This document shows positions 11,546 to 39,744 of a stretch of 64,000 nt of DNA, piece by piece. The stretch spans positions 32,001 through 96,000 of IMG/VR virus record IMGVR_UViG_3300045738_002140. One strand, 5' to 3'. The position numbers and the translations under genes were made by a program. Positions within the stretch are counted from its first letter, which is position 1. Every line of letters begins with the position of its first letter. The notes under the pieces were generated by a model. The model was not told the origin of the DNA, searched no databases, and saw nothing but the letters and a program-made list of their open reading frames with translations. This DNA comes from a virus.

Positions 11546-11974
11546 TGGTGGAAGCGGCGGGAGTCGAACCCGCGTCTTTAAAGCCATCGGCTCAAATGTA
11601 CTACAAGCTTAGTCGGTGTTAATGCTCGCTTGGCGTGTCACCGACAAACGGCCTACGCGAGGTTGTAAGGGATGTATAAATTTTATACTGGGCTCCCTTA
11701 CGTGCTCCAGTTTTTTGCTCGCTATCGACGCCCTAGCTCCTTAACGAGCATCCAGAGTAGGACGGGGTAGGTTATTCTACCAGCAAGAGGGCTTCATCCT
11801 CTACAAAACCGAACTTGGCGAGAATCTCGTCAGCTTCGGCTAGTGAAGGGGCCATCTCCATGTCAACATTAGTGTTGGCATTTATGTTTTTTTGATAGAT
11901 GTTTTTAAGAGGCCAACCATCATCCTCTGCTTGCAATTTGGCGTAAGGTTCTAAATCGAATCCAGTACGCTCCC
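11546..11974 (-). ncRNA. ssrA: tmRNA (429 nt); tag reading frame 11879-11772
   Basis: 5' GGGAGCG pairs with 3' CGCTTCC-ACCA (G3:U70 alanine identity); GGATTCGA near the 5' end; T-arm GCGGGTTCGACTCCCGC; ATAAAT-GCC resume context followed by a 35-codon frame. Confidence 0.95.
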
Positions 11975-13685: not shown

Positions 13686-13759
13686 TGGAGCGAGCGAAGG
13701 GGATCGAACCCTCATCAAGAGCTTGGAAGGCTCCCGCACTACCGTTGTGCTACACTCGC
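13686..13759 (-). tRNA. tRNA-Gly(UCC)
   Basis: Cloverleaf GCGAGTG...CGCTCGC-T-CCA; anticodon loop CTTCCAA; GTTCGA T-loop. Confidence 0.96.
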
Positions 13760-14195: not shown

Positions 14196-15293
14196 TCACG
14201 CTACGTCTTTCACTATTGAATCTATAGTTGCGTTTGTTACTTGAGGCATGCAGATGAGGTGGGCGGTGTTCTTCTCTACTGCTAGTTTCCATTTTCTGCT
14301 AATTTTTTCATCTGGCCTAGGGAAAACTACTGTAATCGCGTGGTCATTTTTCCAAGCTTTCACCCCTGCTTCGTTAAACTTTGAAACAGCATACTCTGCG
14401 GTTCTTGTGCACCGCCTGACTATTCTTTTGAAGCCGTTGAAGCCGTGTTTTTTTATAGCATACCATAAGAGAATGGGGGTGAACCCATTTCTCGAGCCGC
14501 TGAGTGTACTGTCTAATGAGCCCACATACTCTACATCCCTAGAAACCCTGCCGACGTTACTTTTAAGTGCAAGAACTACGCCGCAGGGAATAGGCGAACC
14601 TATAAATTTGTGTCCACTTATGGATATGCTTTGAACCCCTGTTGTAAAATCAAATTTAGGAGAGCCCTCAATGAAGGGCAGCGTCATCCCTGCTAGGGCC
14701 GCATCAACATGTATATAATATTCCGGTATTGCTAATTGTTCTAGTACCTTTTTTATTTCTGTTATATCGTCGAACCCCTCTTTCATTGTCGTGCCTATGT
14801 TTGCAAAAATAACAGGAGGTGCAGAGCGCCAAGTGGAGAGCATGTTCCTGAAGTCGTCATAATCCATTTCTCCGTTACGTCTTGATTTAATCATGACGTT
14901 TTCCATGTTCAATACCCTTATGTTTTTGCTCACGCTATAGTGGGTGTCTTGGGAATAGTAGACTACCCCCTTGGGGTAAAGTTCCCTAGCTAAGTAAAGT
15001 CCATATAAATTGCCTTCCGTTCCACCATTGGTAACATATCCCCAGTAATTATCAGAAGGAGCGTTGTGAAGCTCTGCGAACCAATGCAGCACCTCTTGTT
15101 CGAATTCTCTGGAGTCTAGCCCATAGTAGCTTGAGGAAAATGGGTCTCCTACATTGTTAAGGGGGATAGACAAAAAATCAGATAGCTCAGAATAATCAAA
15201 AGAAGTATTTACAGGGTATCCTATAAACTTTTCTTTTTCTTCCTTCAAGCTTTCGTAAAACTTTTTAAGTTTTTTTATATCTGATTTGTTCAT
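14196..15293 (-). CDS. PLP-dependent group II decarboxylase (histidine/serine decarboxylase family)
   Basis: GYPVN, NNVGDPF, WGYVTNGGTEGN, HVDAAL, SGHKF (PLP lysine), GSRNG. Confidence 0.92.
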   Translation of the reverse strand: MNKSDIKKLKKFYESLKEEKEKFIGYPVNTSFDYSELSDFLSIPLNNVGDPFSSSYYGLDSREFEQEVLHWFAELHNAPSDNYWGYVTNGGTEGNLYGLYLARELYPKGVVYYSQDTHYSVSKNIRVLNMENVMIKSRRNGEMDYDDFRNMLSTWRSAPPVIFANIGTTMKEGFDDITEIKKVLEQLAIPEYYIHVDAALAGMTLPFIEGSPKFDFTTGVQSISISGHKFIGSPIPCGVVLALKSNVGRVSRDVEYVGSLDSTLSGSRNGFTPILLWYAIKKHGFNGFKRIVRRCTRTAEYAVSKFNEAGVKAWKNDHAITVVFPRPDEKISRKWKLAVEKNTAHLICMPQVTNATIDSIVKDVA

Positions 15294-15369
15294 GGCACTC
15301 TCGCTGGGACTCGAACCCAGAACCCTCTGTTTAGAAGACAGATGCTCTATCCAATTGAGCTACGAGAGC
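15293..15369 (-). tRNA. tRNA-Arg(UCU)
   Basis: Cloverleaf GCTCTCG...CGAGAGT-G-CCA; anticodon loop CTTCTAA. Confidence 0.96.
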
Positions 15370-30222: not shown

Positions 30223-32666
30223 TATTGACAACTCTCGCATGAAGGATCTTGTATATTGCAGGCCGCTGGTTCTCCGTCCTGTGTCGCTTGGGTGAATGAT
30301 TTTTCGATTTTGCTTGCGGCTTCTGTTCTTAAGTAGTATGTGCTCTTAAGTCCCCTGTTTCTGGCGTGAATATAAAGGTCGTTCAAGAGTTTAAGAGATG
30401 TCTTATTGTTAAACAGGTTTAAGCTTTGGCCCATATCTATCCATTTTTGTCTCGCTGCGGCACCGTCTATCAAAATAAATTGATCCTGATCAAACGCTAC
30501 CCTGTATTGTCTCTTAAGTCCCTCGGGTAGCTCTCCGTTTAGGTCTGCAACATTTCCGTCTACGGCCTTGATCATTTCTATAAGATTTTTTGACCAAATA
30601 TTTAGTTTCTTACATTCTTTCACGAACCACTCGTTTGTTATCGTCAGGTTTCCCGATTTGTTTTCGTAGACGAAAAGGACAGAAAAATCAGGCTCAACAG
30701 AAGGAGAGCAACCTTGAATGTAAGATATAGTAGCAGTAGGAGCGACAGCCATAGTGTTACTGTTACGCATACCGTAAATCCCAATATCATCCCGTAAACT
30801 TTTCCAATCCACCTCAGAAACATATTCTTTGCCCTTATGGATGATAGGCTGTTGGTCCAAATAATCCATAAGTTTTTTATATGTATCTATGGGAAGAGAG
30901 CCCTTGCTCCACTTGGAGCCTTCGTAGGTTTGGTATTTTCCTCTTTCCTTTGCTAGTCTGTTTGAATTTAAGATACAATGATATGAAATAAATTCATAAA
31001 GTTCATCTGAGAATCTAACCGCCTCCTTCGACGAGAAGTCTATTCCATATGAGTGGAAAACGTCTGCCCATCCCATCGTGCCTGCTCCGACGGGTCTGTG
31101 TTTGTTGTTGGCTTTTTCTGCTTCTTTTGTGGGGTAGAAGTTCAGGTCTATAACGTTATCTAGCATGCGCATTTGGGTAGCTATGCTTTTAGCTAAAAGC
31201 CTGAGGTCTAGCTTTCCGCTCTCTTTAAGGTGGCTCTTGAGGTTTATGGAGCTCAGGTTGCACACCGCTGTCTCTCCTATTTCGGTCTTTTCCCCGTGCT
31301 TATATTTAGAGGCCTTGGTGTGTAAAAAAATTTCTGTACAAAGATTTGAGCTATTTATTATTCCTTCGTGTGAGTTTGAGTACCTTATATTGGCGTTGTC
31401 CTTGAACGTCATCCACGGGTGCCCTGTTTCGTAAAGGGATCTTAACATCTTCTTCCACAAAGATTTAGCTTTTATTATCTTATGGTTTTTAATTTCCCCC
31501 TCTTCCGCTAGTCTGCAATAATCTTTATATTTTTCATCAAACTTATCGCCGTAGGTGCCGTGAAGATCCTTTACGTCATTTGGGCTAAAGAGGTACCAGT
31601 CTTCGTTTCTTTCTACTTTTTGCAAAAAAAGATTTGGAATCCAATTGGCCGTATTGATATCGTGACAGCGACGACGCTCTTCTCCAGTGTTCTTCTTTAA
31701 GTCTAAGAATTCCTCTATATCTAGGTGCCAAGTTTCAAGGTACGCACATCCTGCGCCGGGGCGTTTGCCGCCTTGGTTAACCGCGACTAGGAGATCGTTA
31801 AATATCTTAAGCCACGGAACAAGACCGCTTGAGGTCCCGTTTGTCCCCTTTATGTAGGACCCTGACGCTCTAAAATTAGAGACATCCAATCCTAATCCGC
31901 CCGCGAACTTGGATTTCCTAGCTTCTTGCCACGCCCCTTCGAAAATTCCATCTATTGAGTCGTCGAAAGTATTAAGGTAACAAGAAGAAAGCTGAGAGCG
32001 AGCGCCACCGCTATTAAAAAGTGTTGGGGTCGACGGGCAAAGCCTAAATGTAGAGATAGCCTCATAAAATTCAATTGCTTTCTTTTCTTTGTTTTTTTCA
32101 TTTAGCGCTAGCCCCATCGCTACCCTCATCCAAAAGGATTGGGGAGACTCTAGTCGCCTGCCGCCCATGCTGTGCAGGTAGCGATCATATAATATTTGTA
32201 AACCAAGGTATTTAAATTTAAAATCTCTTTCGGGGCAAAGGATTTCTGATAATTTTTTTAAGTCAAAATCAAGAAGCCTTTCGCTTAGAATTCCTTCTTT
32301 CACTAGAAGCTTTATGTTTCTTATGAATGATAGTCTGTATTGATGGTCAAAGGCGTCTTTGTCTACGCTGATTCCGAATACTTCTTTGTGAATATTCCCT
32401 AGGAGTAGCCTCGCTGCAACGTAGCTGTAGTTCGGTTCCTGTTCTATCTTCGTCCTTGCGGACATGATAAGGGCCCTATCTATCTCCTTGGTGGGGATCT
32501 TGTCGTAGAGCTGAACGTTCGCGTCGATTACAACTTCGCTAGCAGAAACCCCCTCTAGCCCTTCGCAGGCTCTCTGCGCGCAGATATTGGCTTTGTTTAT
32601 GTCGAGGGGCTGCAGTCTGTTGTTTCTTTTCTTTACGTTAAGTATGTTCTTTTTGTGGGGGTCCAT
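30222..32666 (-). CDS. nrdA: Ribonucleotide reductase class I alpha subunit with ATP cone
   Basis: VKKRN cone, TPTLFN, SSCY, SNLCTEI, VCNL, APTATIS, STYYLR, C-terminal CESC. Confidence 0.97.
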   Translation of the reverse strand: MDPHKKNILNVKKRNNRLQPLDINKANICAQRACEGLEGVSASEVVIDANVQLYDKIPTKEIDRALIMSARTKIEQEPNYSYVAARLLLGNIHKEVFGISVDKDAFDHQYRLSFIRNIKLLVKEGILSERLLDFDLKKLSEILCPERDFKFKYLGLQILYDRYLHSMGGRRLESPQSFWMRVAMGLALNEKNKEKKAIEFYEAISTFRLCPSTPTLFNSGGARSQLSSCYLNTFDDSIDGIFEGAWQEARKSKFAGGLGLDVSNFRASGSYIKGTNGTSSGLVPWLKIFNDLLVAVNQGGKRPGAGCAYLETWHLDIEEFLDLKKNTGEERRRCHDINTANWIPNLFLQKVERNEDWYLFSPNDVKDLHGTYGDKFDEKYKDYCRLAEEGEIKNHKIIKAKSLWKKMLRSLYETGHPWMTFKDNANIRYSNSHEGIINSSNLCTEIFLHTKASKYKHGEKTEIGETAVCNLSSINLKSHLKESGKLDLRLLAKSIATQMRMLDNVIDLNFYPTKEAEKANNKHRPVGAGTMGWADVFHSYGIDFSSKEAVRFSDELYEFISYHCILNSNRLAKERGKYQTYEGSKWSKGSLPIDTYKKLMDYLDQQPIIHKGKEYVSEVDWKSLRDDIGIYGMRNSNTMAVAPTATISYIQGCSPSVEPDFSVLFVYENKSGNLTITNEWFVKECKKLNIWSKNLIEMIKAVDGNVADLNGELPEGLKRQYRVAFDQDQFILIDGAAARQKWIDMGQSLNLFNNKTSLKLLNDLYIHARNRGLKSTYYLRTEAASKIEKSFTQATQDGEPAACNIQDPSCESCQ

Positions 32667-34654: not shown

Positions 34655-35254
34655 TTATATTTTGTCTGGCCATTGGTGTTTGCCCTTCATCTTTTTGTTG
34701 AGTACTTTAATTCCCCTTTCGTGGAGGTTTATGGCTGTCTGTGTGCTGGCCTTTATTGTCTTAGCTATCTTTGCCCACGGAGCCTTCTTCCCGTTTTTGT
34801 CGAAGTACCTTAGTTCAAAAACCTGTTTTATTCTTTTATCTTTTAGTTGATTAAGTATATTAAATACAAACTCTAGGTCGTCTTTGTAGTTTTTCTGTGG
34901 TTGTGGGCCGTGGTTGTTCACTAGGTAATCTAGGTCCTTCTCGTCCACGGCGAGATACCTGTTGTTGTTTATTACATTCAGGCAGTGGTACTTTATTTGG
35001 TTCCCGAGCCAAGTCGAAAACTTTACGTTCCTTGTCGGGTCAAAGCTCTTTGCGGCTTTATAGACATAGAAGTCTTTTTCTTTGGATACCTCATGTACGC
35101 AATGCCCTGACGCCATTATCGCTGGAGAGTATTTTTTATAAATAGTAAAACACAGCGGGCTGTGTCTGCTTATTAATTCGCACAGGCTTTTCTCGCAGTT
35201 TTCTGCCTTAACGTTTTCTGCTAGGGCTTTGTCTTGAATTAGGTTTTCATCCAT
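34655..35254 (-). CDS. Sigma70-family RNA polymerase sigma factor (regions 2 and 4)
   Basis: KAAKSFDPTRNVKFSTWL (region 2); QVFELRYF...WAKIAKTI...AINLHERGIKVL (region 4 HTH). Confidence 0.85.
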   Translation of the reverse strand: MDENLIQDKALAENVKAENCEKSLCELISRHSPLCFTIYKKYSPAIMASGHCVHEVSKEKDFYVYKAAKSFDPTRNVKFSTWLGNQIKYHCLNVINNNRYLAVDEKDLDYLVNNHGPQPQKNYKDDLEFVFNILNQLKDKRIKQVFELRYFDKNGKKAPWAKIAKTIKASTQTAINLHERGIKVLNKKMKGKHQWPDKI

Positions 35255-36839: not shown

Positions 36840-37115
36840 TCAACTCTGCAAAAAAGACCCTTGTTGGGTGCTCTGAGCTTTGGAATACAGAACTCGTGGC
36901 CTCCCTGCTTTTGGGGTAGACTTTCCGACCACCCTAAGTGCACCGCTTCTTACTGCTGTATTAATCTTTAGCTGGATTGATACATTAGACAAGGGTGTTG
37001 ATACCGTGGAGGCTAAGTCCTTGACTGTAAAGTGGCCGTCCGGCCACTCTACCTTCACTGCTGGTCTTCCGCGACGCTTTACGTCTGTATTGACTGATTG
37101 ATTTTGTGTGTTCAT
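36840..37115 (-). CDS. Small DNA-binding protein (AT-hook-like motif plus winged helix)
   Basis: KRRGRP; FTVKDLA...GRPRVLY. Confidence 0.6.
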   Translation of the reverse strand: MNTQNQSVNTDVKRRGRPAVKVEWPDGHFTVKDLASTVSTPLSNVSIQLKINTAVRSGALRVVGKSTPKAGRPRVLYSKAQSTQQGSFLQS

Positions 37116-37124
37116 ATTCTCTAT

Positions 37125-37187
37125 AAGATAGAATACTTTTATTAAAAAGTCAAAAAAAATTGATTAATTTTTGTTTGGGCATATTAT
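37125..37187. promoter_or_regulatory. Divergent sigma70 promoters at the strand switch
   Basis: Minus: TTGACT(37153-48)-17-TATCTT. Plus: TTGATT(37160-65)-16-TATTAT, 7 nt before the ATG at 37195. Confidence 0.65.
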
Positions 37188-37194
37188 GCTATTG

Positions 37195-37605
37195 ATGACT
37201 TCGCTTGACGCATCTAATAAGCTTTTTGAATGGTTCGCTGAAAACGATACCTTTTCCTTGGAGCGAGACTTTGGCGGCGTTATGCCTGAGTTTAATGATA
37301 GGGAGGAGGGGGGCGCCATACTCACCTGTGCCCTAAGAGATCTTGAAGCAATAGATTTTATACAAAATTGTGGTGACTTTTGGGTTTTGAAGAAACCCTT
37401 TGTCTCGTTTTCTCAAAACGTAGAGCTACAGCCTCAGGTCTGCTTGGGTATCTCTCAGGTCATCAATGGGTTTTGCGGTATTATAGGCGACGAATCGGAC
37501 GCCTGCGACCCTTCTAGGGTACAGCCCAAGGACATATCAAACATGCTGACTATATGCGGTTATCTCATGCAGCAGAACGCTCAAGAAAGTGATAAGGAAG
37601 AATGA
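37195..37605 (+). CDS. Hypothetical protein
   Basis: First gene of the right arm; start inferred from promoter spacing. Confidence 0.7.
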   Translation: MTSLDASNKLFEWFAENDTFSLERDFGGVMPEFNDREEGGAILTCALRDLEAIDFIQNCGDFWVLKKPFVSFSQNVELQPQVCLGISQVINGFCGIIGDESDACDPSRVQPKDISNMLTICGYLMQQNAQESDKEE

Positions 37606-38465
37606 ATATAGGAATCGTAGGGAATGGGTTTGTGGGGAAAGCTACCGCCCTGCTCGGGTGCAGGGATGAGCGCGGTACTTATCGTTCTGAAGATAATGTC
37701 ATAATGACTTACGACAAGGACCCAGACAAGAGGGTGCCTAGGGAAGTGGAGCTTCATCATCTTAAGGATTGTGGCGTGGTGTTCGTATGCGTTCCAACGC
37801 CCATGAATAAAGATGGGTCATGTTACACGGGTATCGTTGAGGAAGTCATCGAAGAGCTTCGGTCGAACGACGTCGAGGATATAGTCATAAGGTCAACTGT
37901 GCCTGTGGGGTTTTGTCGCGAGCAGGGCGTTAACTTTATGCCTGAGTTTTTAACTGAAGCTAGCTGGGGAGAGGACTTTAAGTCGTGCAGGAACTGGGTG
38001 TTTGGTTTAGACGATCCAGACAATAAGGATTTGAAATTAAAATTAAGACAAATATTCTTAACTGCCAAGCATAATGGCAAAATTAACCATGCTAATTTTA
38101 TGTTTTGCCCTAGCGAGGTGGCAGAGTTGAGCAAGTACGCTAGAAATTGTTTCTTGGCAACCAAGGTCTCTTTTTTTAATGAAATAGAAGAATTTTGTAG
38201 GGTTAAAAACATCTCGTACGAACAAGTAAGAGAGCTCGTAGGCATGGACGACAGGATTGGGACAAGTCACACCTCTGTTCCGGGCCCGGACGGAAAAAGG
38301 GGCTTCGGTGGAACCTGTTTCCCTAAAGATATAAGTTCTCTTTTTAACCAAATGGCAAGCTCTGGGATGGAAAGCTATGTCGTCGAGGCTGCCTGTGCCA
38401 GAAATGTGCAGGTGGACAGAAAGGGTCAGGACTGGAAAAATAGCAAAGGAAGAGCCGTGGTTTGA
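37602..38465 (+). CDS. UDP-glucose/GDP-mannose 6-dehydrogenase-like protein (short, no C-terminal domain)
   Basis: GNGFVG, CVPTP, RSTVP, PEFL, GFGGTCFPKD. Confidence 0.9.
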   Translation: MNIGIVGNGFVGKATALLGCRDERGTYRSEDNVIMTYDKDPDKRVPREVELHHLKDCGVVFVCVPTPMNKDGSCYTGIVEEVIEELRSNDVEDIVIRSTVPVGFCREQGVNFMPEFLTEASWGEDFKSCRNWVFGLDDPDNKDLKLKLRQIFLTAKHNGKINHANFMFCPSEVAELSKYARNCFLATKVSFFNEIEEFCRVKNISYEQVRELVGMDDRIGTSHTSVPGPDGKRGFGGTCFPKDISSLFNQMASSGMESYVVEAACARNVQVDRKGQDWKNSKGRAVV

Positions 38466-38947
38466 ATATAATATTCGAAAAGACTTCCTTAAGCGCGGTT
38501 AAGCCAACAAAACAGCACCCACAAGACGCTGGCTATGATTTGTACAGCACACACAGGGTTGTTATCAATCCAATGGAAAGAGCAGTCGTCCCAACTGGAA
38601 TAATCGCTCAAATTCCTGAAGGATATTATGGCAGGATTGCGCCAAGAAGCGGGTTGGCGATCAGGAATGGGGCGGGCATACTTGCCGGGGTAATCGACTC
38701 AGGCTATGCAGGGGAAATAGGCGTCGTCCTTGTGAACTTAAACCTGCCCGTGTCCCTGTTGAACCCAAGCAAAAAGATCGCTGCTTTTGAAAACATGTTC
38801 GGACAAAAAGGAAAAATAGAAATAAATCCCGGCGACAGGGTAGCTCAAATAATTATTGAAAAATGTTATGATGTGACATGGACAGAGTCAACAGAAACAA
38901 AACAGTCCGAAAGGGGAGAGGGAGGTTTTGGTAGCTCAGGAATTTGA
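38462..38947 (+). CDS. dut: Trimeric dUTPase
   Basis: AGYDL, PRSGLA, GVIDSGYAG, RVAQ, RGEGGFGSSG. Confidence 0.97.
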   Translation: MNIIFEKTSLSAVKPTKQHPQDAGYDLYSTHRVVINPMERAVVPTGIIAQIPEGYYGRIAPRSGLAIRNGAGILAGVIDSGYAGEIGVVLVNLNLPVSLLNPSKKIAAFENMFGQKGKIEINPGDRVAQIIIEKCYDVTWTESTETKQSERGEGGFGSSGI

Positions 38948-38972
38948 CTTTCGTACATAAAGCAACTATAAT
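38944..38972 (+). promoter_or_regulatory. Near-consensus sigma70 promoter with no downstream ORF
   Basis: TTGACT-17-TATAAT. Confidence 0.85.
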
Positions 38973-38977
38973 CAGAA

Positions 38978-39328
38978 AACGGTAAAGTCCGTTTAAGCTC
39001 GCTGAGAGAAAACAGTGGAGTTTCCCCTAGGTGAGACATAATTTGTCAGGGTGGCAGCAGGAGCCCCAACCCTAGGGAATACCTGCTAGGGAAATACACA
39101 CCCATTAAAAAACTGATAGGTAGTTCCTATCGCAATGCCCCGGCGTGTTGTGGTAACTGCTGTAAGGAGTTTTCAAGCACAGTTTCTCCGCCTGTAAAAA
39201 GGTAGGTAGTTTCAGGTAAAACTGATCGTGTATGTCTGCTGAATGTCCCCTCAGCTTCAAAAAAACAGGGCTTAAAGAAGGCGAAAGACATGCTCAAAAC
39301 CCTCTCTCGTAGGGGGTTTTGTCTTTTC
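38978..39328 (+). ncRNA. Candidate large structured non-coding RNA, family unrecognised
   Basis: Own promoter and terminator, no ORF of 60 aa or more, raised GC, nested long-range helices (see findings). Confidence 0.7.
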
Positions 39329-39329
39329 T
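39295..39329 (+). terminator. Intrinsic terminator
   Basis: CAAAACCCTCT/AGGGGGTTTTG stem followed by TCTTTTCT. Confidence 0.8.
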
Positions 39330-39390
39330 CCTTAAGAAAGGCGTCAACATACTTTTGAAAAAATTATTATAAATTGATATATTTTACTAG

Positions 39391-39744
39391 ATGGATATCG
39401 ATTATGATGTTGTTCTTGCTAATTCTTTTATAAGCTGTGCTGTGTTACTGGTCTGGTTTAAGACTGAGGCTGTGCTAGAATACGCAAAGCTATTCGGCTT
39501 GGGTAAGATTTTCTACGAAAAAGAATATGAAAAATTTGCAAAGACTAATATGTTTCTTGGGTACCACGATTTTCTTTTAAAAAAACATAACTGTTTTGTA
39601 ATGAGGCTTATCACTTGCCCTGTTTGTCTTACGGTTTGGATGAGCGTTTTTTTTGCTTTATTTTTTGGTTTTTATTACTTGTGTCCTAATATTATTATTA
39701 GTTTGAGTATCTATTTTTTTGTGTTAAAATTAATGAAGGATTAA
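39391..39744 (+). CDS. Membrane protein with CxxC (DUF1360-like)
   Basis: Hydrophobic segments, LITCPVCLTVW; TTGAAA-17-TATATT promoter 7 nt upstream. Confidence 0.65.
   Translation: MDIDYDVVLANSFISCAVLLVWFKTEAVLEYAKLFGLGKIFYEKEYEKFAKTNMFLGYHDFLLKKHNCFVMRLITCPVCLTVWMSVFFALFFGFYYLCPNIIISLSIYFFVLKLMKD

Follow-up and report, generated by a model that had tools for sequence, protein, structure and literature searches.

The GOLLD and ROOL families consist of large, ornate RNAs that are encoded by phages and prophages (PMC12286853). In this article we describe the gene for an RNA of uncultured marine phages whose product would, by analogy, act most like these large orphan phage RNAs, although it falls outside their families. 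The gene was found in a window of 64,000 nucleotides (nt), by which we mean the whole stretch of DNA that was analyzed (positions 32,001 to 96,000 of IMG/VR virus record IMGVR_UViG_3300045738_002140); it extends there from a promoter at 38944 to a terminator that ends at 39329, and all coordinates given below are those of the window and of its + strand unless otherwise marked. Like GOLLD and ROOL, the RNA is a large, intricately folded, phage-encoded orphan that has its own transcription signals. It shares no sequence or model match with them, however, and it differs from them by habitat and host range, being a product of marine phages, and by its length of ~330 nt, which is half or less of the 580-800 nt of GOLLD and ROOL. 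Those RNAs form a homo-oligomeric cage, and self-assembly is plausible by analogy for the RNA described here as well. As is often the case for GOLLD and ROOL, tRNA genes lie nearby in some of its relatives, at distances of 0.7-4 kb (L015:5557-5734, L016:2558-2641 and L074:7066-7139; relatives are cited by L numbers).

Large RNAs with so much conserved tertiary architecture are rare, and the ones with known functions (ribosomal RNAs, RNase P, transfer-messenger RNA [tmRNA], group I and group II introns) perform fundamental biochemistry. OLE, GOLLD, ROOL and raiA are closely watched open problems of bacterial RNA biology, and the present RNA, at ~330 nt and from marine phages that are abundant, is a compact addition to them. 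It is a tractable one, with a clear promoter and terminator, a well-defined fold, four long-range pairings that can be tested, and a size that suits chemical probing and cryo-electron microscopy. A search of the literature found no description of the RNA; a catalogue of ~8,500 short viral RNA candidates could include fragments of it, which would be unnamed there (PMC10690425).

A conserved RNA gene in marine phages

The virus record is an IMG/VR entry of 114 kb, estimated to be 66% complete, in which the RNA stretch is present once. An earlier note, made by reading the letters of the window, had described an interval free of open reading frames (ORFs) with a promoter and terminator of its own, followed by a gene that also has its own promoter, and had taken the interval to encode a stand-alone structured phage RNA of unrecognized family. 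A consensus scan and the ORF list agree with the first part of this description. There is no + strand ORF of at least 30 amino acids (aa) in 38948-39390, between the upstream dUTPase gene (38462-38947; Pfam dUTPase, E = 3.7e-33) and the gene 3' of the RNA (39391-39744), which encodes a 117-aa protein of no known function. Promoter P1 (TTGACT-17-TATAAT, 38944-38972) matches the sigma-70 consensus at 11 of 12 positions; 20 of 39 relatives have its strict motif, TTGNNN-N16-18-TANNNT, at the same position, and the majority of the others retain TTGAC and have a weaker -10 element. The RNA ends in an intrinsic terminator (39295-39329), also located by consensus scan, which consists of a C-run/G-run hairpin of 11 pairs (39295-39321) and a U tract. 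All 39 members have this terminator (helix 94.9% paired in the alignment), and because the U tract is interrupted in many of them, some read-through is likely. At its right end (39355-39393) the unit has a second promoter, P2 (TTGAAA-17-TATATT, 39355-39383), and the ATG of the gene that follows. P1 and P2 have in common the pattern TTGAYT...YCAAAA...TAnnnT, in which YCAAAA lies in the spacer, and P1 is a sigma-70-type promoter of the class shared with its neighbors. The promoter spacing puts the probable start of transcription near 38979, at the base of a 5' hairpin, and with the terminator this predicts an RNA of ~320-350 nt; the stretch including its flanks measures 347-411 nt across members.

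No DNA match to the RNA or to the surrounding 18 kb was found in the GenBank phage collection, and the closest isolate phages have less than 46% identity in ribonucleotide reductase (RNR). The first relatives came from loci that were fetched through the dUTPase protein and then searched with nhmmer. The RNA stretch is conserved in ten of these loci (E from 4e-42 to 1e-14), in four of which it is on the opposite strand and lies across the dUTPase gene from its place in the window; a search through the downstream 117-aa protein yielded zero relatives. The set was enlarged by three DNA-pattern scans of IMG/VR for conserved core motifs and by profile searches, and it now holds 39 distinct full-length members, all on marine viral contigs. 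The RNA therefore recurs in dozens of uncultured marine phages, and the public sequencing runs that contain the stretch are likewise from seawater or marine metagenomes. A scan of 185,579 species genomes gave 47 pattern matches, one of them genuine. Since this sole match is a phage-like contig, nothing in these genomes points to a cellular homologue, and the hint of a host is weak. The contig (L128, CAZYHH010000001.1, 44 kb) shares the phage gene set, its RNA does not differ from that of L004, and it was binned in a metagenome-assembled genome of a marine Pseudomonadales bacterium, which is either a hint of the host or a binning artefact.

Several kinds of comparison point to a fold that has been conserved in the family. 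The + strand of the window's RNA folds at -108.7 kcal/mol (z = -2.16 against shuffles), as compared to a z of -1.10 for its complement, and RNAalifold predicted 31 pairs from 24 sequences, 24 of them with compensatory changes. A fuller model was built by hand from a covariation scan and tested on a 39-sequence alignment (A3), in which mean identity per column is 53%. In A3 the 59 pairs of this model are canonical in 91.5% of cases versus 78.2% when partners are shuffled, a level that none of 500 shuffles reached. Changes on both sides occur in 40 pairs where 28.4 are expected, the covariation score is 0.416 as against 0.185 in shuffles, and canonical pairing falls to 34-52% when partners are slid by 1-3 columns. 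Elements H0, H4, H9, H10 and PX of the model (see below) were assessed by single folds and duplex energies rather than by column counts; for PX, as for PK4, duplex energies were used because the columns align poorly. Nothing in the alignment has the character of a coding sequence: only 23% of the gaps are multiples of three, and the members share no reading frame, the longest stop-free stretches being short and on inconsistent strands. On this comparative evidence we conclude that the stretch is an RNA gene, and neither a protein gene nor a chance fold.

The second part of the earlier description, a stand-alone RNA of unrecognized family, also holds up, given 39 homologues with abundant compensatory changes, a single copy in the virus record, no coding signature and no match in Rfam. 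When the whole window was compared with the 4227 models of Rfam 15 at gathering thresholds, the matches were a tmRNA and two tRNAs, all away from the RNA gene, and ten other members gave tRNAs only, again away from the RNA gene. The tmRNA of the phage is of the one-piece, full-length kind (11546-11974, - strand; 134 bits versus RF00023), and the tRNAs are tRNA-Gly(UCC) and tRNA-Arg(UCU) (13686-13759 and 15293-15369, respectively, both - strand). With lax filters, a search of 38800-39500 returned matches at E >1 only, which were driven by the terminator or were noise, and a second member gave no meaningful match. As judged from these model searches and from the features compared below, the RNA belongs to no described family, which rules out membership in those of RNase P RNA, tmRNA, group I introns, GOLLD and ROOL.

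Architecture of the RNA

The predicted fold has three domains, D1 (38998-39103), D2 (39110-39225) and D3 (39232-39291), with a hairpin at each end of the RNA, and the domains are joined to one another by PK1 to PK4, four pairings that are long-range or form pseudoknots. The 5'-terminal hairpin H0 (AAACGG/CCGTTT, 38977-38994) is of the type AAAAGG-loop-CCTTTT in most members; pairing there ranges from 37% to 95% per column in a region where the alignment is loose. Within D1, the local hairpin H1 (CTCGCTG 38998-39004 / CAGT-GAG 39013-39020) is 95.2% paired, and four of its seven pairs vary on both sides. It is followed by H2 (CCCTAGG 39025-31 / CCTAGGG 39071-77), which encloses a GACA/TGTC hairpin and H3 (GGC 39053-55 / GCC 39063-65); these helices are 78-84% paired, with both-side changes in seven of 11 pairs. 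The earlier note had proposed two possible partners for TTTCCCCTAG, and it is the first of these (39071-77), not the second, that the family supports. The loop of H3 (AGCAGG, 39056-61) pairs with CCTGCT (39082-87) to form PK1, a pseudoknot that had been drawn by hand and that covaries among homologues as GGUC/GACC, AGCC/GGCU, GGUU/AACC and GGCA/UGCC, with both-side changes in all four pairs; its columns are just 54-74% paired because the alignment is not structural at this point. Single-sequence folds place a further hairpin, H4, at 39089-39103 (GGG/CCC in this phage), with the 5' strand of PK4 as its loop (ATACAC, 39094-99). Domain 1 is the most variable part of the RNA. In most relatives (subfamily 1, e.g., L015:4560-4580) it has a small hairpin with the loop GAA-NNNN-AGUA, which we liken to a bulged-G (sarcin-ricin type) motif under a GNRA-like cap, and a GAGAC...GUCAG element takes its place in the subfamily of the window.

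Domain 2 is the conserved core and holds the majority of the family's invariant bases. It contains PK2 (AAAC 39110-13 / GTTT 39182-85; 99.4% paired, with AU/GC exchanges at two pairs and a CG/AU exchange at a third), H5 (39115-20/39126-31), the two-pair H6 (CC 39140-41 / GG 39152-53), and H7 (39155-61/39205-11; 98.5% paired, six of seven pairs with both-side changes), which surrounds H8 (39167-69/39186-88; 100% paired) and H9 (39191-93/39200-02). H5 was among the hairpins seen in the single sequence (as GATAGG/CCTATC), and in the family it is 98.7% paired and all six of its pairs vary on both sides. The hairpin TCAG/CTGA of the same hand-drawn structure, here H10 (39212-15/39222-25), is found like H9 in single folds of nearly all members with differing sequences. 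Taken together, H5, H7 and H8 are 98-100% paired and have both-side changes in 15 of 17 pairs, and along with PK2 they are the best-supported elements of the predicted fold. The peripheral elements, by comparison, are dispensable, since L100 has no H10 and L086 is without most of domain 1.

Domain 2 is bracketed by PK4, whose 3' strand (GTGTAT, 39228-33) pairs with the H4 loop. This long-range pairing, too, was noticed in the single sequence, and it is borne out by duplex energies of -4.77 kcal/mol with the phage's own partner versus -2.29 kcal/mol with partners of other phages (p = 3.5e-13); the partner types include CUGCA/UGCAG, CUACA/UGUAG, UGCGA/UCGCA and UAUAC/GUAUA. Domain 3 is closed by the PX helix (ATGTCT 39232-37 / AGACAT 39286-91), for which own duplexes average -9.5 kcal/mol versus -5.5 kcal/mol for partners taken from phages with a differing strand (p = 4e-17). 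Inside PX lies hairpin H11 (GCTGA 39238-42 / TCAGC 39251-55), assessed by alignment column counts, whose loop (CCC, 39247-49) pairs with GGG (39268-70) over an A-rich linker to form the H-type pseudoknot PK3, with exchanges to CUC/GAG (L072, L081) and CCA/UGG (L002).

Other parts of the hand-drawn structure, about half of which was wrong in detail, did not survive the comparison with relatives. Three long-range closing helices, TTTAAGCTC/GGGCTTAAA (38992-39000/39268-76), GCTGAG/CTCAGC (39001-06/39250-55) and CAGTGGA/TCTGCTG (39013-19/39235-41), are complementary in this phage and lack support in the family. The bases concerned are instead part of H1 and H11, both of them local hairpins, and of PK3, in which the GGG is the partner of the H11 loop. 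Two short internal repeats, TAGGTAGTT and AAAACTGAT, are indeed present in the window and are unrepeated in most relatives.

An insertable cassette and its direct repeat

Clustering of the proteins that flank the RNA in 24 loci revealed two main gene arrangements. In the commonest one, the RNA lies between c0, a gene for a conserved protein of ~140 aa, and the gene for dNMP kinase, which in six loci is preceded by a glycosyltransferase-like gene directly after the RNA; in all loci of this arrangement the genes for dUTPase and the 117-aa protein are found elsewhere and overlap each other. In the arrangement of the window it is these two genes that are separated by the RNA, and in one sub-type of this arrangement c0 and dNMP kinase are adjacent, with no RNA between them. 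Because the RNA is found between gene pairs that are contiguous elsewhere, P1, the RNA, the terminator, the second copy of a direct repeat (see below) and P2 behave together as an insertable cassette, which always lies to the right of a switch in gene orientation and is never more than the first three genes away from it. The c0 gene itself is at the switch point (37171-37605, + strand) and immediately precedes the RNA in the majority of relatives. Its acidic product belongs to no Pfam or PHROG family and has 8 close homologues only. A confident AlphaFold model (pLDDT 91.7) contains a winged helix, with weak matches in the PDB to MarR/OhrR, ScpB, MukE and Vps25 (E >=0.02). We considered c0 as an RNA-binding partner and set it aside in view of the missing family, these weak matches and the lack of any lead in the protein atlas.

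The terminator is bracketed in all 39 members by a direct repeat of 23-30 nt. Copy 1 (39271-39294) lies inside the RNA just 5' of the terminator and comprises the purine-rich linker between PK3 and PX together with the PX 3' strand. Copy 2 (39331-39353) lies just 3' of the terminator and abuts the -35 element of P2. The two copies change in concert, since copies from the same phage are far more alike (mean score 23.7) than those compared across phages that differ in copy 1 (14.3; p = 8e-22). Copy 2 is always one base short relative to copy 1, after the first three bases, and a short internal patch differs. The spacing between copies ranges from 58 to 78 bp among members and has no helical phasing. 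Mutual information found only the other copy and no complementary partner of the repeat inside the RNA; a search for complements of the repeats came up empty in both the RNA and the window, and the window has no third copy. Candidates for such a copy near the divergent promoters were A/T-rich and mostly within the range of shuffles. Nor do DNA contigs of four runs contain the joint that would result from deletion of the terminator between the copies. A role of the repeat as a Shine-Dalgarno (SD) decoy was rejected, since it is SD-like in few members and since an SD-like 4-mer precedes only 15 of 50 genes of the window, which suggests that translation in this phage-host pair may be SD-independent. 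The possible readings of the repeat are as sites of a co-evolving DNA-binding protein, as an alternative closing strand in read-through transcripts, as a means for the RNA to hybridize to downstream DNA, or as the outcome of recurrent gene conversion. Short direct repeats next to a small RNA gene and its terminator, which are read at the RNA level, are known from phage P4 immunity (CI RNA, seqA/seqC) and from the type III antitoxin ToxI. The repeats here also flank or adjoin an RNA gene and terminator, but they are split by the terminator rather than tandem, and the genes downstream are variable and non-toxin.

Possible functions and comparison with known RNAs

The reading that we favor, and to which we give about an even chance of being correct, is that of a stable RNA, made early and acting in trans, which would bind a protein or its own copies. 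Host RNA polymerase would transcribe it early in infection, and it would act in trans as a compact, nuclease-resistant particle, with the near-invariant D2 as the working surface for a protein (of host or phage origin) or for other copies of the RNA. Its role would be that of a scaffold, sponge or decoy, not of a regulator of the adjoining gene, and the purine-rich strand of copy 1, the terminator hairpin and the U tail might serve as an exposed 3' module for chaperones such as Hfq or for ribosomal protein S1. Action in trans rather than in cis is argued by the fact that the downstream gene differs (117-aa protein in some loci, dNMP kinase or a glycosyltransferase-like protein in others) and has its own promoter, and by the insertion of the cassette between genes that otherwise overlap. 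Early expression is probable because P1 and P2 follow a common pattern and because the cassette lies beside divergent promoters among genes for nucleotide metabolism and a sigma factor. The cassette-like mobility shows that phages exchange the RNA as a complete module, and this points to a function that can operate in a wide variety of genetic backgrounds.

A number of observations weigh against this proposal. No candidate for a partner protein was identified, and there is no RNA run among the public runs that contain the stretch. Copy 2 of the repeat lies outside the predicted transcript and is left unaccounted for by a purely trans-acting RNA; the co-evolving repeat is an anomaly that any proposed mechanism must explain. 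In every arrangement, moreover, the cassette is found 0.5-2.3 kb to the right of the strand-switch point, a position that suits a role linked to a replication origin as well, and the modelled winged helix of c0 suggests binding to DNA rather than to RNA. A wider conjecture, which we regard as unlikely though worth stating, is that the family represents a new class of functional RNAs that have their own biochemical activity, either as large ribozymes of a new kind or in taking over a host machine early in infection, and in which the repeat would reflect a previously undescribed interplay of an RNA segment with the identical DNA or RNA segment downstream, e.g., RNA-guided priming, recombination or promoter control.

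The ribozyme can also be considered by itself, with D2 as a catalytic center that would cut, join or modify phage transcripts, precursors of tRNA or tmRNA, or the RNA itself. Its size, the four long-range pairings and the near-invariant core with conserved unpaired GUAAG, GAGUUUU, GGUAG and AAAA(A/G)AC are what one might expect of such an enzyme, and the phage's own tmRNA and tRNAs require processing, with tRNA genes lying 0.7-2 kb or less from the RNA in some relatives. We nevertheless think it rather unlikely: the RNA has no likeness to any ribozyme family in Rfam 15, the order of its strands is unlike that of group I introns, ribozymes of the hepatitis delta virus (HDV) type or RNase P RNA when compared with textbook topologies, and no candidate substrate or cleavage site was found.

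A link to a replication origin, which takes up the last of the functions listed in the earlier note (ribozyme, scaffold, decoy or replication primer), seems to us decidedly unlikely. Transcription from P1 would here activate or prime DNA synthesis, either with the repeats as iteron-like sites around a G+C-rich inverted repeat that is followed by an A+T-rich stretch, or with the copy 1 part of the RNA hybridizing to the template at copy 2. The position of the cassette, always 0.5-2.3 kb to the right of the orientation switch, agrees with this, as do the minimum of the cumulative GC skew at ~34-36 kb of the window, the winged-helix c0 gene at the switch point and the co-variation of the repeat copies between phages, which is how iterons vary with their initiator. 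There is a precedent in ColE1 RNA II, a folded primer RNA; like it and like the transcripts of T4 oriF and oriG, the RNA is a promoter-driven folded transcript beside a strand-switch zone, and by analogy its copy 1 could hybridize to downstream DNA. On the other side, gene orientation explains the skew equally well, the copies are variably spaced and unphased, copy 2 lacks one base of copy 1, and there is no convincing third copy. The terminator, furthermore, precedes the supposed priming site and separates the RNA from the putative hybrid, in contrast to the primer transcripts named, and a near-invariant pseudoknotted core, which is far more conserved and knotted than that of any known primer RNA, would be needless in an origin transcript.

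If the RNA were a leader that acts in cis, be it a riboswitch, an attenuator or a processive antiterminator, its core would set termination at 39295-39321, and copy 2 would be a second closing strand in read-through transcripts. The PX-closed fold does have the look of an aptamer, and in this phage there are two alternative partners for the PX 3' strand AGACA, namely 39232-37 and the tail of the terminator stem, TGTCT (39318-22); the broken U tracts of many relatives make some read-through likely. Copy 2 is also complementary to the PX 5' strand, although weakly (-5.5 versus -4.7 kcal/mol, p = 0.018), and for this reason we did not adopt a replacement of copy 1 by copy 2 in the PX helix. What makes a leader very unlikely in our judgment is that the downstream gene differs between arrangements and that P2 lies between the terminator and that gene, next to its ATG, and moves together with the unit. 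The alternative pairing in this phage, moreover, would let PX compete only with the base of the terminator stem and would leave its G/C core intact, and no riboswitch or leader family is matched. In the window the ATG lies ~8 nt past the -10 element of P2, and it is likewise a few bases away in L079, L088, L076, L099 and others, a spacing which suggests that the genes after the RNA may be expressed as leaderless messages.

It is highly improbable, and largely refuted, that the RNA is a member of a known family that was missed by the models (a very divergent RNase P RNA, a relative of tmRNA or a group I intron), given that cmscan, when run with lax filters on two members, found nothing at E <1 for any of the three, and that ten further members had no such match at gathering score. 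The resemblance to tmRNA is in length and in a series of pseudoknots with A-rich linkers between them, and the same phage encodes a tmRNA; the RNA is, however, without the tRNA-like domain, tag reading frame and CCA end of tmRNA, neither ARAGORN nor Rfam finds a tRNA-like feature at 38975-39330, and the best local score against the phage's own tmRNA is 22, within that of shuffles (mean 18, maximum 27). Bacterial RNase P RNA is similar in size, in its long-range pairings and in being a stand-alone gene with a promoter and terminator. Its models give no match at E up to 10, and its conserved regions CR-I to CR-V and helix P4 are absent from the RNA. The 3' part GAATG..TCC..AAAACAGGGCTTA of this phage's RNA is superficially reminiscent of J18/2-P4 in the bacterial RNase P molecule; the bases that look like CR-V form H11 and PK3, with GGG paired to the H11 loop, rather than P2 or P4, and the 5' partner once proposed for them lies in H1. 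A group I intron is found inside a host gene with flanking exons and has P8 between P3' and P7'. The RNA has its own promoter and terminator, lies between complete genes and matches no such model, and no hairpin intervenes between the contiguous 3' strands of its PK2 and H8, unlike the P3-P7 arrangement with P8.

The genes around the RNA are those of nucleotide metabolism and host takeover and encode the large and the small subunit of RNR, dNMP kinase, dCMP deaminase, dUTPase, a UDP-glucose-dehydrogenase-like protein and a sigma factor. A basic 91-aa protein with two RGRP-type motifs and no family assignment, which is probably a small DNA-binding regulator, is encoded where the divergent promoters lie (36840-37115, - strand). 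The sigma-factor-like gene (Sigma70_r2; 34655-35254, - strand, and also L072:9507-10097) is carried by most relatives in an operon directly downstream of the RNA cassette; in the window this block is inverted and sits to the left of the RNA.

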